DNA of 62,575 nucleotides, filler included, from Stramenopiles sp. TOSAG23-2 (taxonomy: Eukaryota): assembly GCA_900128395.1 (NCBI GenBank). It is 9 parts of 9 records of this genome, joined end to end, with 100 filler letters (N's around TTAATTAATTAA, not from the genome) between each part and the next. Parts side by side here need not be neighbours in the genome. Positions count along the whole stretch, not along the records: positions 55,727 to 62,575 come from LT650397.1; 8 more parts are not named here. One strand, written 5' to 3'. Shown in pieces: positions 6,879-61,638 of this stretch. The position numbers and the translations under genes were made by a program. The notes below the pieces were generated by a model that worked only from the letters and a program-made list of their open reading frames with translations, had not been told where the DNA came from and made no database searches. Within the stretch, counting starts at the first letter, position 1, and every line of letters starts with the position of its first letter.

Positions 6879-6978
6879 NNNNNNNNNNNNNNNNNNNNNN
6901 NNNNNNNNNNNNNNNNNNNNNNTTAATTAATTAANNNNNNNNNNNNNNNNNNNNNNNNNNNNNNNNNNNNNNNNNNNN
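6879..6978. other. Artificial contig linker (N44-TTAATTAATTAA-N44); same linker at 13855-13954, 20826-20925, 27792-27891, 34755-34854, 41717-41816, 48672-48771, 55627-55726
   Basis: 100-nt spacers with six-frame stop cassette; contig lengths fall in order 6878, 6876, 6871, 6866, 6863, 6862, 6855, 6855, 6849. Confidence 0.97.
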
Positions 6979-43795: not shown

Positions 43796-45120
43796 TGCAT
43801 CCAAAAAATAGATATCAAAATGGGTATTCCTTTGAAACGTTTAATTCAAAAAGTTTAATCTATCCATACTTGATAAAGCGTGATACATTTTCATTCATTG
43901 ATTGGAAAAATTACGATGCAGTGAAAGCTTTTAATATATCATTGCTTAAGAGGGATTTCGATCTGAATGTTCATATCGAACCAACGGGAAGACTGGTACC
44001 GTCAATACCAAGCAGGTTAAATTATATTTTATGGATTAGTGATTTAATTGATGCAACAAAACAAACATTAACAAATTTTAATTATGTTGGTAAGATTATT
44101 GGAATCGATATAGGAACTGGTGCATCTTGTATATATCCATTACTAGGAACATCTATGAATAAAAATTGGCAGTTCTATGCAACTGAAATCGATATTGATT
44201 CTTACAATAATGCTTCTAAAAATGTTGCGATGAACAATTTAAATAGTAAGATAAAACTTATTAAAGGATGTCACAATAAATTTTTTCAACCTGTATTTGA
44301 CAACAGCAATGATGATAATTCTAATAATAATAATAATAACAACAACAACACTCGATTACAAAAAGAAAAAGTTATGTTTACAATGTGTAATCCCCCATAT
44401 TTTTCTACAATGGAGGAATGGGAAGCAGGTAAGTCTGGAGATATGTTTGGTGGAGAACCTGTTGAAATGATAACAAACGGTGGGGAAGAAACATTTATTA
44501 TAAATATGATCAATGAAAGTATCAAATATAAAGATCAAATTATATGGTTTACTACATTGATTGGTATAAAAAAACATATACATAGTATAGAAAAAAAATT
44601 ACGATCTTTATCACCACCAAATCATGTAATGGCTATTAAACACCACACATTTAGACAAGGACGTACTTTTCGATGGGGTATTGCATGGAGCTTTTTCAAA
44701 AATATAATTGAAAAAGAAATTGTTGATGTACGAATGAATATAAAAAATTATCTTCATAACATCAATGATGATAAAACAATATCTGATTATTTGAATCAAT
44801 GTATGGTTGAATTTTTAGATTACTGTAGTCACCATCATCATAATAATAATAATGATGACTATCGCATAGAAAAAAGTTTGGAAGGAATCGATAATCTTTT
44901 TATTGTTTTTGTTAATCGTAACGCATTGTTTAAAATTAAGTTGAATATTGATGGTGATTATATTATATTTAAATTGATGGAAACAACAACATCTAATAAC
45001 AACGTTGTTGATGAGAAACATGAAAATAACAATAATAAATTTCATTTCTTTAAAATCGTTGATAAAATGAAAAGTTGTATTACACAAAGTAGAAAATGGA
45101 AAAGAAGAAAAAAGAAATGA
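43654..45120 (+). CDS. METTL16: METTL16 / RlmF-family RNA m6A methyltransferase
   Basis: LVPSIPSRLNYILWI, IDIGTGASCIYPLLG, MCNPPYF, GGEETFI, WFTTLIG, QGRTFRWGIAWSF. Confidence 0.9.
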
Positions 45121-45252: not shown

Positions 45253-46077
45253 TTATTCTTCTGTTACGACTAACCCACCAGCATTTGGTGATGGATCATT
45301 TGGTTTATCAATTAAATCTGGATCAAATCCTTCCATTGTCATTTTATGTTTTACAACGGAAGGGGGAAGGCCTAATTTCAACATTTTAAAATATTTTGCA
45401 AATGCTGGATCATCTTTAATAGTTAATACAGCTGCCTCTTCTTCACCAGCTTTTTCTTCTTCTGTTGTCCCATTTTCCAACTCTAATACGGGTTGTTGTT
45501 CACTACTATCATTATTATTACTATTGGTTTCGGGCTGTGGTTGTCCACCGCCACCACCACCACCAGGATTATTTGGTGATATTGCATCTGGTGTATCAAG
45601 TAAATTAGGATCTAGATCCGTTTCTGCACTTAATTTCAACTTAATTTGTTCAACAGGCATACCCAGTTTCATCAGTTTAAAATAACGTGCATATTGTGGA
45701 TCATCTTTAACTTTTAATGCATTTGGATCTGGCCCAGGTGGAGCAGGGGCTGTTTTCGTTTCTTGTGCAGGTGCTGCAGTTGTTGCTGCTCCGTTACTAT
45801 TACTATTAGTTGCAGTCGTATTTGCTGGGGCACTTTGCGCAGAACCATCTAAATCTGGTACTGAATCTAATTTCGCCTCTAAAATACTTAAAGTAGTCTC
45901 TAACCTTGATAAATTATTTGATACTTTTAATAATTTTTCATCTACTATTGCACTAAATCGGTTTAAAAAACGTGTTGTATTGACTACGAAATTATTCACA
46001 ATGACAAGACTTTTTTTAATTGGTATTGGACGGCAATGCCTCAAATCTTGCAACGCACCTGTTGGATCTTCACTCAT
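45253..46077 (-). CDS. WASHC3: WASH complex subunit 3 (CCDC53) with duplicated C-terminal module
   Basis: VNNFVVNTTRFLNRFS...LETTLSILEAKLDSVPDL; KDDPxYA(R/K)YFK(L/M)xKLG module twice; start MSEDP at 46077. Confidence 0.9.
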   Translation of the reverse strand: MSEDPTGALQDLRHCRPIPIKKSLVIVNNFVVNTTRFLNRFSAIVDEKLLKVSNNLSRLETTLSILEAKLDSVPDLDGSAQSAPANTTATNSNSNGAATTAAPAQETKTAPAPPGPDPNALKVKDDPQYARYFKLMKLGMPVEQIKLKLSAETDLDPNLLDTPDAISPNNPGGGGGGGQPQPETNSNNNDSSEQQPVLELENGTTEEEKAGEEEAAVLTIKDDPAFAKYFKMLKLGLPPSVVKHKMTMEGFDPDLIDKPNDPSPNAGGLVVTEE

Positions 46078-46958
46078 TATTTGTTTGTTTATTTTTTTTA
46101 CAATGTATATATTGCAATTAAGGAGCACCGCACAGATTTGGAAAAGTATTTGTGGAACAAGACGATTAAAAAATGTTGCACTATATAAGATTACTTTCCA
46201 TCAATTGATTTACTCTCTACCAATCTCTACATCAATAAATATTGTAATTATTCTCTTCATCAAATAATATAATCTTATTCATCTTCATCATCGCGTTGCC
46301 ATCATCATTTTGCATCAATATTTTTTATTATTTTTTCATCACCATGATTTCAATGCTGTGTAGTGCTTTTCGGTCATAATACCTTAATTCATTAAAAAGT
46401 CCAAAAAGGCGAAAAACATGCAACTTAAACTACAAGTCCTCGTACTGTACTGTTAATTCTGGGAGCTCAGTTTTTGTACTTTAACTTGTAAACATAAACG
46501 GAGCGTGTGGCCGTGTGGTATATTTACCTTAAAAACAAATAATTTCAAATTGAGAGCTGGCCCAGCTGGAAAGCCAAAGGAAAGCCTGGAAAGCCCAACA
46601 ACAACAACAACAAATTTTTGTACTCTCTTCTCTTCTGCTAGCTACCAGGTACTGTACTCATTCAATGGATTGATTCAACAACAAAAACTAAAAAAAAAGA
46701 TTTGAATGAAGAAAATACGATAACATATATCGATAATACGCCGGCCACATGCATATTGTGGAAGAAAAACAAACACGGAATTTATATAGTACACAAGTGT
46801 GGATTTTTCTTGAAATTATTATTAGTAACCATAGTATAGATATACAGTGTGTGGAAGATTTAGATCGTGATATTATTATTATTATCATCGCTTTGAATAT
46901 TAAATTTTTTTTTTTTTGTGTGTAAATTACAATAATATAAATAAATATAAAAGAAAAG

Positions 46959-54716: not shown

Positions 54717-54816
54717 GGTAAGCAATACATGGACTTCCCGTCTGGTCCCCCACGACAGTACTAACCATGCTTGAAGAGACTTAACTTCTCAGTGCGGGAT
54801 GGGATGAGGTGCTTTA
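54717..54816 (-). pseudogene. 5'-truncated 5S rRNA copy (lacks the first ~20 nt)
   Basis: Exact 120-bp tandem duplication: 54697-54816 = 54817-54936. Confidence 0.75.
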
Positions 54817-54836
54817 AAAAGTTGTAGAAGCAAAAA

Positions 54837-54956
54837 GGTAAGCAATACATGGACTTCCCGTCTGGTCCCCCACGACAGTACTAACCATGCTTGAAGAGAC
54901 TTAACTTCTCAGTGCGGGATGGGATGAGGTGCTTTACTCTTAAGATGATCGCTTAC
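54837..54956 (-). rRNA. 5S ribosomal RNA gene
   Basis: GTAAGCGATCATC...GAAGTTAAG...GGTTAGTACTGTCGTGGGGGACCAGACGGGAAGTCC...GCTTACC; 5'/3' ends pair; T5 Pol III terminator follows; TA-rich box about 25-30 nt upstream. Confidence 0.93.
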
Positions 54957-55626: not shown

Positions 55627-56753
55627 NNNNNNNNNNNNNNNNNNNNNNNNNNNNNNNNNNNNNNNNNNNNTTAATTAATTAANNNNNNNNNNNNNNNNNN
55701 NNNNNNNNNNNNNNNNNNNNNNNNNNTATACAAACCGTTGTAATTTTATTGAATAGAGACAATATGCTATATTTATGACAATTGTAGATTTTGATGATTG
55801 ACGGCACCACTTACAAAATATTGTTCCTCTGAATCTTTTTTGTGCCAAATCAGCATGGAGCTTCCCTGACATGTATGAATGGAATCCCAATCGGTTAGAA
55901 CACCATATGAAATGTATTCCTTGTCGCTCTGAAAAATATTTACCATTTAATGTTAAAATATCATTTTTCATATGGGTACATTGAATAACCGGATCATGTA
56001 TGTATTATTAGCAGGTGTATAAGCCTATGATACCACTTCACTGCTATACAGTGTTAATCCAGTAAAAATAATTCCACTTCGATAAGGGGGAAAATCAATG
56101 AAAAATTAAGTACGATTTTAGAATAACAAAAAAAAGTGCATTTTTGTGCACAAAAAAGTAATTTTTAAATATGATTAATATACTAAGAGTACAAATTTTA
56201 TCCTATGTGTAAAATCGGCACCTTTGATCTTTTCGGCTGTCATACATATTCCATTTGCATTACCAAGCGACTAGCCAAAAACAGCTACGTTTCTGATAAC
56301 CTTTGTCAACATTTTAGAGTCAAACAATACACAGTCAGAGAGATATTTTGCTGTATTGTCGCAAGGAAAAACAACTAATAATAATGATAATAATAATAAT
56401 ATAATAATATAATAATAATAAATAAACAACACACAATAACCTGAACCAGCAGCATTAATAGCAATAAATACTCTACTACTAATAAATAATACCAACCTGG
56501 CCAACAACACTTTTTATTTTTATTATCTGGTGCTGTACCACGTAGAGGTGTAACATCAATAAACAATATGAAGGAGTTTGTTATGCCTTTTACAGATAGA
56601 TACTTTTACCGACGTAAATCAACTTGCACGGTTCCCTGTTAAGCATTGAAATTGGACCAGAGCTTGCCCAGCTTGCTGGCGGGCTGGCCCAGCTGGCTTG
56701 GTCAGTCTGCTTGGTGCGTAAGACAAAAAACTACTACCTCTTGTTGGTCATTA

Positions 56754-57318: not shown

Positions 57319-60300
57319 ATGACGTTATTAATTAAATATTTAATAATAATAACTTCAACTGTAATAGTATGCAACGCTTTTGGATTGAAAGAAGAAATAT
57401 GTGCGGGGCAGAAAGATTTGATGCGTAAATTAAACCGTGATGGAAAGCTATGTAATGGTGTGGAGAATTGGAAAACATGGTTTCATTTGAATTACCCTGG
57501 TTGTGGAAAAGACATTACGTGGGCAGAAAATCATTTCAAAAATGACGGTGTGAAAATGGCAGGAAAAACCCCTTTAGTAGAAAAGGGAAACCATTTACAA
57601 TTGATGCAGAAACGCCTACTCGATGATAGCTCACGTGGAAGGGAGTTATTAAGCGAATGGAATGGAACGGCAACAACTGGATCATTTAATCTTGTTAGGA
57701 ATATGACGAAGACAAGTAGTACAATTAATGTGGATGGTAAATTAGAAATTATTGGAATTGTTGGGGATGATGGGGTTAAGCCAGCAATTGATGGTGGGAA
57801 TACGCCGGGGTGTACGGACAATTGTCCTGGGCATATGGTGTTTAAATTAACTCACCGGAATCATGAATTACGATTAACAAACATAGCAATTCAGAATGGA
57901 TATTCGGTACGTTTTCTAATTTTGTTTTCTGATTTCTGATAATATTGTATTGGATGATTATTGTCTATCTTTTTTTCTTTCTTTTTCTATAAATCAAATG
58001 CAACGGACTAACATTTAGTTTTATTATTATATATGATATTTAATATATTGTATTTCGAATATGATGGTATAGGCTGTAAGTAAACGTTAAATGATTGATG
58101 TCTTTGTCTTTCTTTTTTATCAAATGGAATGGACTAACATTTAGTTTTATTATTATATATGATAATATATTGTATTTCGAATATGATGGTATAGTATGTA
58201 AGTAAACGTTAAATGATTTGATGTCTTTGTCTTTCTGTTTTATCAAATGCAATGGACTAACATTTATTTTTATTATTGTATCAAGGGTGGCGGATTATAT
58301 ATATATAGAGGATCTGCCATATTGACAAGCTGTACCGTATCAAGTAACACAGCTGTAAGTAGATTCAAACATATCTTTCTATTATCAATCGCAAAGGACT
58401 GACATTCATTTTTATTATTATATATGATATTTTTAATATTGAATCTTGGATATGCATAGAATGTAAGTAAACATTGAATGATAATTATCTTTGTCTTTTT
58501 TTTTATCAAATGCAATGGACTAACATTTAGTTTTATTATTATATATGATATTTAATATATTGTATTTCGAATATGATGGTATAGGCTGTAAGTAAACGTT
58601 AAATGATTGATGTCTTTGTCTTTCTTTTTTATCAAATGGAATGGACTAACATTTAGTTTTATTATTATATCAAGGGTGGCGGATTTTGTATACTTGGTGG
58701 ATCTGTCATATTGACAAGCTGTACCATATCAAGTAACGTAGCTGCAGTAAGTCCCGTCACAAATGGTGGAGGAATATACGTTATTATAGATTTTACAAAA
58801 TTGTTCTTAAATAATTGCATCTTTGAAGGTAATACTGCCTTGAATGACATAGGGGGTGCCCTTTATATTGACGAGTACGGGTCTGCACAACGGGGAGAAT
58901 TGTCTATAATCAATACATCATTTTTTCACGCTTCTGATACTATCTATTTTAAAACAGTATCATCTTCATCATGTATATCTCCCTCGAGTTGTATATCAGG
59001 AGGAGGTGGAACTGTATCGAATTACAACTCCTCTGAATGTAGTCACGTTTTTGTGTGTGGAAGATGTCCAAAAGGACGGTATCACACCGAAAGCGAATGT
59101 TTGCAATGCTTTGTTGGGAGATATACTGATCAACTTGGAGAATCGTCATGTAAACAATGCAAAGTTGGTCTGTACAATTCAGAAAATGGGATGGCAAGTT
59201 GTAAGCCATGTGAAATAGGAAATTATTGCCTTGGTGGCATGAATCAAACAAAATGCCCTCGTGGTTCGTACCAAGATAAAGTGGGCAAATCAAACTGCAC
59301 AGTGTGCCCGGGTGGAAAATACCAAGAAAAAACAGGGCAACCCGATGTTTCTTCTTGCAAAGCTTGTGGTACAGGAAAGTATTTGCCGCCTATTACCAAC
59401 TTTGATCATCACAAAAGCATCAAAAATTGCATTGAATGCGCAAAGGGGCAATATGAATCTTCAGGCGGAGCATCAGAATGCGATAAATGTAGCATCGGAA
59501 AATATTTCTACCCAAACGTTACAGGGAGAGAACGTGAAACTGAAGCTTGTAAACGGTGTGCAAAAAATACTTTTACTTCTTCCCGTGGACTTCTGAGATG
59601 CACAGCATGCGATGTGGGCAAAACGGCAAACGATGCTCATACAAGTTGTGTTACAGATGGAAACAATGATGATACTTCTGCACCAATAATCGATACCGTT
59701 AAATCTGCTAATGAACAACACCGCTCGTTGGATATTACATGGACTGTACCATTAAATACCAACAGCAACACGATAGAAATAGAAAGTATCGTTGTTACAG
59801 CAACAAACGAAGAGACAAATATGGAAGAAATAGAAAAATCTTTTAAACCAGATGCAACAAAAGGGAGGTTAGATGAACTGGCAGTTGAACATCAAATTTA
59901 TAAATTGGATATAAAATTCAAATATAAATCTGGTACTAATAGTAGTAAAAATTCTTGGTCAAAGCTATGGAAAACAACTAACGATTGTAGGGATGACGAA
60001 TTCTATTTAGATGCCACTGGTAACAATATGATGAAATGGAACTGCAAATCTTGTCCAGACGGTGCATCGTGCAAAGGCGCAAAAAGCAAGAACGATCTTT
60101 ACGCCAAATTTGGTTATTGGGGCTACAACAAAACACAATACTACCCTTGCCTTCGTTCACAAGCATGTTTCGGAGGGAAAAATCAAGAATTTAAAGACCG
60201 TTTTAAAGATGCAAATGATGATAAACCAATCGCGTTTTGCGCAGACGGGTATCTTAACGGAAGCCGTTTATGTGCATCGTGTGATCTAAACCATGCTCGT

Positions 60301-61638
60301 GGTTCTAGTTTAGGCGAGTGCAAAGTTTGTCACACAGAAACAGATGTAGTAGGATTTATTGTTGGCGTTTTAGTTGCAACAGGTGGAACTTTCATACTCA
60401 TTAAAATTACAGTATTTAAAGAACGGAAAGTTTATTTTAGTGATGGTGTAAAGAAAATTGCACTTAGTTATTTGCAAACTGTTTTATTGGCACGTAATAT
60501 GAATGTTCCGTGGAATAATACGTTTAGGCAGTTATTCTTTGTGCAGGATGTTGTAGCACATGTGTTGGCAGTAATCTTTTCCTTGGATTGTGTTTTAAGT
60601 ACTGCAACGGCGTGGAGTGTCTTTGTACTTCGATATGTATGTGTACTTATAATGCCTTTTCTTATCGTGCCTTTGACAATATTTTGTATGAAACGTATTG
60701 GTGGCAATAAAGAACAAATCGTTGCTACATTAGTTTTATTATGGTATCTAATGTTTCCAACATTTATACAATCGTTTGCAAAGTTGATAAGTTGCACGGA
60801 AAGTATTGGTACAGAACGGTTACATTATTTAAAACTCGACCCAGAAATAGTTTGTTGGAGAGATACACATTTAATAATGTTTTTTTTTGGTGGTCTTGTT
60901 TCATTAACATATATAATTGGGTTTCCATTAGTTGGATTGTACGTATTGCGTAAAATTGACCGTGACCTACCAGAGAATCGTTTAAAGTATGGGATGTTAT
61001 ACGATGGCTACAACAACCAATATTATTACTGGGAGATAATAATGATATTACGTAAAATTTTAATTGTTGTTATTGGAACATTTGTAGCAGATAGTCAACA
61101 AATACTTTGCGTTTTGTTTGTATTGGCATCATTGATATTTTTGACAGCATACTACCAACCGTTCATGTCAAGCGGCTTGTTGCATTTGGAGCTTGGTTCG
61201 TTATCGTTGGCTTACTTTACATACTCGGTTGGGGGTTTGTTGCAAACAGATCCAACCTGTGCTGATGACAATGGGTTTTGGTGTGAATTTTCTGCATATT
61301 TTGTTACTCTTGTAAATGTTATTGGTATTTTTTACCTTGCATACATATTTGCAACCGCAAAATGGAAAGAAAAGGCAAATTCGGTGATGGCTGTTGTGAG
61401 AAGAAAGCGTTCTTGTTGTTATGCAAAACGCAATGATTTAAATGAGCATCAGGGTAATAGAAATAGTAGAAATACATGGTATGATGATGGTGACGCGGCA
61501 GCGGCAGGTAGAGGTAATGTTGAAGTTGCTATGGTAAAGACATCAAAGGCAAAGAAGGGAGATGGCAATGGCCAGAAAAGAAAAATAGAAACTATTAATC
61601 CATTGATTAATTTATCATCTATCGAGAATAATGGTTGA
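57319..61638 (+). CDS. Multi-exon surface receptor (~1210 aa): signal peptide, beta-helix/PMP-like GGG repeats, Cys-rich GCC2/GCC3-type repeats, FN3-like domain, multi-TM C-terminus. Exons 57319-57906, 58073-58075, 58195-58197, 58286-58354, 58460-58462, 58585-58587, 58675-61638
   Basis: Six GT-AG introns with GACT(A/G)AC branch points, all phase 0, join ORF 57319 to ORF 58711; CPxGxY repeats; YGMLYDGY..YYWE...RK..QPF TM-region motif. Confidence 0.85.
57990..58745 (+). repeat. Tandemly duplicated intron/exon modules
   Basis: TCAAATG(C/G)AATGGACTAACATTTAGTTTTATTATTATAT...GATGGTATAG|NNN|GTAAGTAAACGTTAAATG recurs; 69-nt repeat exon duplicated (58286-58354 vs 58675-58743). Confidence 0.92.

Follow-up and report, generated by a model that had tools for sequence, protein, structure and literature searches.

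The 62,575-nucleotide (nt) stretch of DNA analysed here as a whole, from Stramenopiles sp. TOSAG23-2 (GenBank assembly GCA_900128395.1) and referred to below as the window, carries on its + strand a gene (57319-61638) whose predicted product combines a signal-peptide-like N-terminus, beta-helix repeats, ephrin-receptor-like Cys-rich repeats (which in the last exon match Pfam PF07699, with E=1.3e-13) and a multi-pass membrane tail. The subject of this text is an array of introns in the first part of that gene, and the relation between the distance from branch site to 3' splice site in each intron and the size of the exon that follows. As read from the sequence, the array region consists of tandem paralogous short U2-type introns within a gene whose beta-helix and Cys-rich product is secreted or lies in a membrane, and these introns delimit a 69-nt exon that encodes one beta-helix repeat and four candidate exons of just 3 nt (Table 1).

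The splicing signals of the array are uniform. The donors are GTACGT once and GTAAGT five times (GT(A/C)(A/C)GT), the acceptor is YAG in six introns of six (with the G of the 3' splice site at 58072, 58194, 58285, 58459, 58584 and 58674 in introns 1-6, respectively), every junction is in phase 0 and each intron contains one GGACT(A/G)ACA motif, 25-61 nt from its AG. All four candidate 3-nt exons are preceded by ATAG and followed by GTAAGTAAAC, and the pattern AG-NNN-GTAAGT, which is matched four times at 58071-58592, has a single chance match elsewhere on the same strand and none on the other strand. With the introns removed, the conceptual product is an open frame that aligns to intronless relatives in repeat and linker positions. 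Downstream of the array, after the third 23-residue repeat (58741-58764), there is an in-frame GTAAGT (58744-58749) located 3 nt past the usual place of the donor, and the 7-residue linker that follows this repeat is encoded within the exon; the motif may mark an intron that was lost or a donor that was exonised.

Table 1. Exons, candidate exons and introns of the array, in order along the window (AG, acceptor dinucleotide; ORF, open reading frame).
Feature	Position	Strand	Signals, content or basis
Exon 1	57319-57906	+	ORF; signal-peptide-like N-terminus, family-specific domain, first beta-helix coil; ends in phase 0
Intron 1, long type	57907-58072	+	GTACGT donor; GGACTAACA branch site, A 58011, 61 nt to AG
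Candidate 3-nt exon GCT (Ala)	58073-58075	+	Splice-site pattern
Intron 2, long type	58076-58194	+	GTAAGT donor; branch A 58137, 57 nt to AG
Candidate 3-nt exon TAT (Tyr)	58195-58197	+	Splice-site pattern
Intron 3, short type	58198-58285	+	Branch A 58260, 25 nt to AG
69-nt exon, one 23-residue beta-helix repeat	58286-58354	+	ORF; RNA-library contig colinear, including flanking introns
Intron 4, long type, most divergent copy	58355-58459	+	GGACTGACA branch site, A 58402 (ACTGAC), 57 nt to AG
Candidate 3-nt exon AAT (Asn)	58460-58462	+	Splice-site pattern
Intron 5, long type	58463-58584	+	Branch A 58523, 61 nt to AG
Candidate 3-nt exon GCT (Ala)	58585-58587	+	Splice-site pattern
Intron 6, short type	58588-58674	+	Branch A 58649, 25 nt to AG
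Last exon	58675-61638 (stop codon included)	+	ORF; beta-helix repeats, PF07699, membrane tail

A preliminary description of this DNA had reported that the distance between branch point and 3' splice site switches with exon size, and the values that it gave for the window were confirmed when the distances, first read by eye, were recomputed: 61, 57, 25, 57, 61 and 25 nt for introns 1-6. Long-type introns (57-61 nt) thus precede the four 3-nt exons, and short-type introns (25 nt in both) precede the 69-nt exon and the last exon. Equally borne out is the statement that the two types are alike up to TTATTATT(A/G)TAT and are then set apart by an AT-rich spacer of about 35 nt, since the short type continues from this point with CAAG and the long type with 36-40 more AT-rich nt before its AG, which makes for a net difference of 32-36 nt in tail length. 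All six introns belong to a tandem repeat with a ~126-nt unit (5.3 copies according to Tandem Repeats Finder), and a 186-nt stretch spanning one triplet (57973-58158) recurs 512 nt downstream (58485-58670) with 96% identity. What can be compared in the window is therefore one duplicated module with another, not six independent cases, and no chance test within it is meaningful (a perfect four-versus-two split would have a probability of 1 in 15 even were the introns independent). The switch is first of all a property of two co-duplicating modules and, because tail and exon duplicate together, branch distance is weak evidence of micro-exon function; the earlier suggestion that it amounts to independent evidence that the micro-exons are functional is not supported.

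A broader comparison is provided by six loci (L001-L006) identified in a metagenome scan, to which searches of genome contigs and viral contigs added no further locus. The exon-1 protein of L006 has 48% identity in the region that could be matched. In this locus, exon 1 is followed by a first intron of 89 nt and by a row of eight AG-NNN-GTAAGT sites, with near-identical introns of 111-133 nt between them, then by a 69-nt repeat exon and by arrays of three, one and seven triplets lying between further repeat exons, which brings the total to 19 triplets. Triplets are also found in L002 (one) and in L003 (two) before the contig ends, while L004 has three triplet units followed by an 11-nt remnant of the end of a repeat exon and then by an unrelated low-complexity ORF (L004:11330-12365), and L005 is without introns in this part of the gene. 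The distance before 3-nt exons is 46-47 nt in 19 of 19 introns in L006, 51 nt in L002, 42 and 62 nt in L003, and 70, 70 and 71 nt in L004; before normal exons, it is 30, 38, 38 and 38 nt in the four introns concerned in L006. Pooled over five loci, all 29 introns that precede 3-nt exons have distances of at least 42 nt (42-71), the six introns that precede normal exons, in the two loci that have such exons, have distances of at most 38 nt (25-38), and none of the 29 former introns has its branch site closer than 45 nt to the 5' splice site that follows. A rank test gives p=5e-5, but on data that are pseudo-replicated.

The organisation of L006 is worth a word in its own right. Its 19 candidate single-codon exons (arrays of 8, 3, 1 and 7) lie at L006:3521-6635, amid near-identical introns of 111-149 nt, so that 23 introns are packed in 3.1 kilobases (kb), and no other convincing introns were found in the 13.5 kb of this locus. 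Sub-families of units repeat in the same order, a feature of the sequence that suggests multi-unit duplications. As for the possibility that introns are more conserved than exons between paralogues, it was rejected, the exon/intron identities being 86/86, 83/81 and 79/86% when the window is compared with L001, L002 and L003, respectively.

The spacers that make long-type introns long have little in common between loci. No fewer than 24 of the 26 between-locus spacer pairs align no better than dinucleotide shuffles, the exceptions being the window versus L002 (a score reached in 6/500 shuffles) and one L003-L006 pair (1/500). Since spacer similarity is undetectable among the window clade, L003, L004 and L006, length has been kept or regained without sequence. 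What the spacers do share is that, in every one of the 29 long-type introns, AG is missing between position +9 after the branch site and the 3' splice site; the same holds for all six window introns (their one AG, at +6/+7, is too near the branch site to count). From base composition, the probability of such an absence is 0.014-0.13 per spacer in the window, L003 and L004, and 0.47-0.77 in the pyrimidine-rich L006, which is the only locus where a polypyrimidine tract occupies the spacer. The trinucleotide TGC stands immediately before the AG in L006 and L004 units and in one of the four window units, but it is also part of the ordinary TTGCAG acceptor.

Other properties of the spacers were considered and rejected: (i) a hairpin that would shorten the effective distance, because eight branch-to-donor stretches fold like shuffled sequences (z-scores of -0.67 to +1.07), (ii) an origin of spacer plus triplet as a decayed copy of the 69-nt exon, an idea suggested by the layout of a MAFFT alignment, since the four long tails, when aligned locally with each of the two exons, gave scores that were reached by 276-977 of 1000 dinucleotide shuffles, and (iii) an ATGATG-like element near the long-type acceptor, which is plausible by eye, as spacers are not significantly alike across lineages. 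No known RNA family was detected in 57700-58900 at E values up to 1.

How might these observations be brought together? The reading that we put forward is that the micro-exons are used and that the spacing is maintained by constraint, which we consider a serious possibility, if a shade short of probable. The short loop that connects one 23-residue beta-helix repeat to the next would be encoded residue by residue, each in a phase-0 3-nt exon of its own, and arrays would grow or shrink by tandem duplication or unequal recombination of a module made of an intron plus one codon (the module measures 108-125 nt in the window and 111-152 nt in L006). The modules are of two types, one in which a long-tail intron always adjoins a 3-nt exon and one in which a short-tail intron always adjoins an exon of 69 nt or longer, and the long tail would be kept through a spacing requirement under intron definition. 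When the exon is only 3 nt long, the tail of intron n would be the very stretch held as '5' exon' by the spliceosome acting on intron n+1, and a U2-bound branch site less than ~40-45 nt from the next 5' splice site would be an obstruction, from which the long tail would keep the branch site away.

This inferred mechanism is not quite the one proposed in the preliminary description, where a distal branch point was thought to relieve a steric clash between U2 and the U1 bound just past the micro-exon. At a 3-nt exon, the nearest clash would be between recognition of the 3' splice site and U1, and it would not be relieved by branch distance. Since no branch distance would prevent the acceptor AG from overlapping the site bound by U1, the U2-versus-U1 picture is incomplete, and a spacing rule that opposes a U2-bound branch site to the spliceosome on the next donor would fit better. 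In general terms, a steric or spacing reading is a plausible hypothesis, and it is already in print for animals (see below).

Several points weigh against a maintained spacing constraint. The first is that an intron tail adjoins its exon, which means that tandem duplication copies both and produces the association without any selection. Next come the limits of the comparison: just two loci hold both intron types and constitute the effective sample (both go the predicted way), the difference between long and short types is small in L006 (8-17 nt), metagenome assemblies of tandem repeats can be collapsed, and L004 may be a chimeric assembly or a truncated pseudogene. Elsewhere in the window, an ordinary phase-1 intron of 124 nt on the - strand (10052-9929), which has a GTAGGT donor and joins two open segments into a 249-residue frame, carries an ACTAAC motif 46 nt from its AG and precedes a normal exon. 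This value overlaps the micro-exon range, whose minimum is 42 nt, so that long distances do occur before normal exons in this organism, a comparison which assumes that the window segments come from one genome. It is the sole other convincing intron found in the window, which is otherwise intron-poor and made of long single-exon genes. The switch with exon size is not peculiar to one locus, as it recurs in L006 (46-47 versus 30-38 nt); the 25 nt seen before normal exons in the window is no organism-wide rule.

RNA evidence, drawn from four of the 21 listed metatranscriptome runs (X1-X4) and amounting to seven short contigs, also belongs on this side of the balance. A 259-nt contig from X4 (a polyA library) is identical to exon 1, and contigs from X1 and X2 lie on the last exon; no splice joint was found among these contigs, none of which bridges an intron, and most of 57868-59003 is uncovered by them, so that the lack of a joint proves nothing. 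A 166-nt contig from X2 (58276-58441) starts in intron 3, crosses the 69-nt exon and ends in intron 4, with three differences, and, being colinear with the DNA, represents unspliced RNA or DNA carry-over.

The alternative that accommodates several of these points is neutral hitch-hiking, according to which the micro-exons are real and the long tail has no role, having merely adjoined a codon when the module arose and been copied ever since, while the distance from branch site to AG is loosely constrained. The long-type copies at each locus are indeed near-identical tandem copies, the ordinary intron with its 46 nt argues that long distances ahead of normal exons are tolerated by the splicing machinery of this organism, the spread of long-type distances among loci (42-71 nt) is what would be expected without a set optimum, and large variation in branch-to-AG length has been described in hemiascomycetes such as S. 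cerevisiae (PMC2483917). Hitch-hiking does not, however, sit well with three observations, namely that the spacers of four lineages are dissimilar and yet none of 29 falls below 42 nt, that short types in the same arrays remain at 25-38 nt, and that AG is missing from 29 spacers of 29. We regard it as possible, though on the unlikely side.

Both the spacing constraint and hitch-hiking take for granted that the triplets are used as exons, which is highly probable. Frame is uninformative in this respect because all junctions are in phase 0, so that the frame survives skipping as well. In a library of 1.84 billion proteins, 23 relatives of the exon-1 protein were found, and numerous relatives terminate after read-through of the same phase-0 intron start, which argues that the position of intron 1 is common to a large paralogous family. 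Such a family is also what a 90%-identity cluster of 20 N-terminal fragments that end in intron 1 points to at the sequence level. P0160 and some twenty ORF calls end after running into intron 1, and the database model P0001 spans just the final 815 residues of the last exon (59193-61638 in the window) and, as does P0013, begins at an internal Met ~170 residues inside that exon. The database models that were examined, for the gene and its close paralogues, thus halt in intron 1 or begin inside the last exon, and no protein that spans the array was found in the databases searched.

More telling are the relatives that have no array. In the intronless L005 and P0026 and in the gene-model protein P0029, 10 of 10 linkers, counted from the N-x-A that closes a repeat to the GGG that opens the following one, have 2-9 residues, and the arrays sit exactly where relatives carry these linkers. 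Inclusion of the triplets would produce linkers of 2-3 residues in the window and of 1-8 residues in L006, and skipping would leave 0-1. Across the 19 units of long type in L006, acceptor TTGCAG and donor GTAAGT never vary, and positions 1 and 2 of the triplet rank 4th and 2nd, respectively, among the most variable of 120 columns. On sequence grounds, the linker comparison and this pattern of conservation are better evidence that the triplets are exons than branch distance is. Both micro-exon inclusion and the role of ACTRAC as branch site are inferences.

If the triplets were unused, each array would be spliced out whole, as a single long intron (57907-58285 and 58355-58674), or the inner sites would be mere stepping stones, and the inner signals would be young duplicates that have not decayed. 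Skipping would be frame-neutral in phase 0 throughout, the copies are young (as judged by the 96% identity mentioned above), the contigs from four runs include no spliced RNA and one that is unspliced, and the junction occurs in no database protein found. Against this, linkers of 0-1 residue would be implied, a length that none of the 10 linkers of array-free relatives has; introns of ~1.1 kb would be required in L006, whose single introns measure 89-149 nt; all 19 L006 units have their inner splice signals (donor, branch site and acceptor) intact, with the triplet among the most variable positions; and none of the 29 triplets is a stop codon, which is weak evidence. We therefore consider disuse of the triplets to be decidedly improbable. 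It is very unlikely that long-type introns in fact branch at weaker, proximal sites within the AT-rich spacer, in which case the upstream ACTAAC would be a relic and the real distance ordinary. In the window, three of the four long-type introns carry one or other of two spacer sequences that have yUnAy-like motifs at 23-29 nt from the AG. However, the spacer of intron 2 (one of three distinct ones in the window), both L003 spacers and 11 of 15 distinct L006 spacers lack such a motif at 15-40 nt from the AG, there is exactly one strong CTRAC motif per intron (save two introns with extra copies), and intron-poor lineages with a strong WCTRAY consensus use WCTRAY in most introns (PMC2483917).

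Should the arrays be spliced as drawn, they would represent an unusual way to build and vary protein loops. Combinatorial splicing is possible because every junction is in phase 0 with interchangeable splice sites, and a broader scheme can be imagined in which (i) arrays are spliced combinatorially, (ii) an AG-free, unstructured spacer lets an intron-definition spliceosome accept a 3-nt exon, (iii) the minimum distance from branch site to next 5' splice site is ~45 nt and (iv) arrays recombine unequally. Taken as a whole this is a long shot; it would amount to a recombination- and splicing-based way of varying loop length and sequence, with up to eight single-codon exons in a row and 19 per gene (L006). 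In practical terms, single-codon exon arrays defeat gene callers. Owing to its unmistakable ACTAAC/CTAAC motif, its minimum-size exons and its many natural replicates (42-71 nt), the gene family is also a clean natural system for determining how little spacing a branch site needs from the 5' splice site downstream of it.

The rest of the window provides some context. Its DNA is AT-rich and eukaryotic, with a G+C content of 27-41% across 2-kb windows. On the - strand, there is a gene for WASH complex subunit 3 (CCDC53) at 45256-46200, whose nearest named relatives are from oomycetes and which has closer, unnamed marine metagenome matches at 71-80% identity, and two tandem genes for 5S ribosomal RNA at 54717-54956 (Rfam RF00001; 57 and 99.6 bits). 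The matches of the WASH gene suggest that the DNA is from an uncultured marine protist of stramenopile-like affinity. Eight junctions of the form N(44)-TTAATTAATTAA-N(44) occur every ~6.96 kb, from 6879-6978 to 55627-55726, in addition to a few shorter runs of N, and the window looks like nine segments joined by a linker with stops in all frames, or like a sequence masked at intervals.

As for known systems, single 3-nt exons have been described in animals, and searches of openly available full-text articles did not turn up tandem arrays of single-codon exons. In stwintrons, an inner intron interrupts a splice signal of the outer one, and recursive splice sites juxtapose AG and GT. The present arrays are similar in that consecutive reactions would take place at close sites, but each intron has complete signals and 3 nt separate AG from GT; the only sequence of the recursive form YAG-N0-GTAAGT in the window is at 44426, and there is none in the array region. 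Introners are near-identical introns with transposon features, of which many copies lie scattered across numerous genes (Gozashti et al., 2022; PMC9860276). The arrays resemble them in the presence of many near-identical introns in an intron-poor context and differ in that all copies are in tandem in one gene. No dispersed copies were seen, as the six occurrences of GGACTRAC in the 62.5-kb window are all in 58005-58650, and the L006 and L004 units are confined to the array region (~95 kb examined). There are no transposon ends or terminal inverted repeats at the unit ends; a search revealed only AT-rich internal palindromes with 74-79% complementarity. Most of the coding sequence in the micro-exon genes of Schistosoma is divided among exons of 6-36 nt, and the introns on either side are long and unrelated to one another. 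There too, runs of symmetric exons (multiples of 3 nt) in genes for secreted or surface proteins allow in-frame variation, whereas in the present arrays only loop residues are encoded in this way, with one codon per exon and introns that are tandem copies of each other.

Closer still are systems in which the branch site itself is displaced. Distant branch points are reportedly linked, as a class, to alternative splicing. With their exclusion zones for AG dinucleotides, they are well established in human genes (Gooding et al., 2006; PMC1431707). The likeness lies in a branch site more than 40 nt upstream and in the lack of AG up to the 3' splice site that is used (here in 29 of 29 introns), and the difference in that the human class is defined genome-wide, while here we are dealing with a feature of one duplicating intron module. 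Strong WCTRAY branch motifs have been described in intron-poor eukaryotes, and branch-to-AG distance is variable among yeasts (PMC2483917). A longer distance from branch site to acceptor before very short exons, together with the idea of steric relief, has already been put forward for vertebrate neural microexons. According to a 2026 preprint (PMC12871342), these have a longer predicted branch-to-AG distance (human medians of 45 versus 34 nt) and an unpaired spacer, and steric relief has been proposed there as the reason for the extended distance. The resemblance to the long-type introns described here thus concerns both the longer predicted distance before very short exons and the unpaired spacer. 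Neural microexons are single, mostly 3-27 nt long and alternatively spliced, they are regulated through SRRM4/eMIC, the eMIC domain being an animal feature, and through UGC motifs, and their predicted branch sites are degenerate. In the present arrays, all exons are 3 nt long and up to eight of them stand in tandem, each intron has an unambiguous ACTAAC/CTAAC motif, and the host is a protist.

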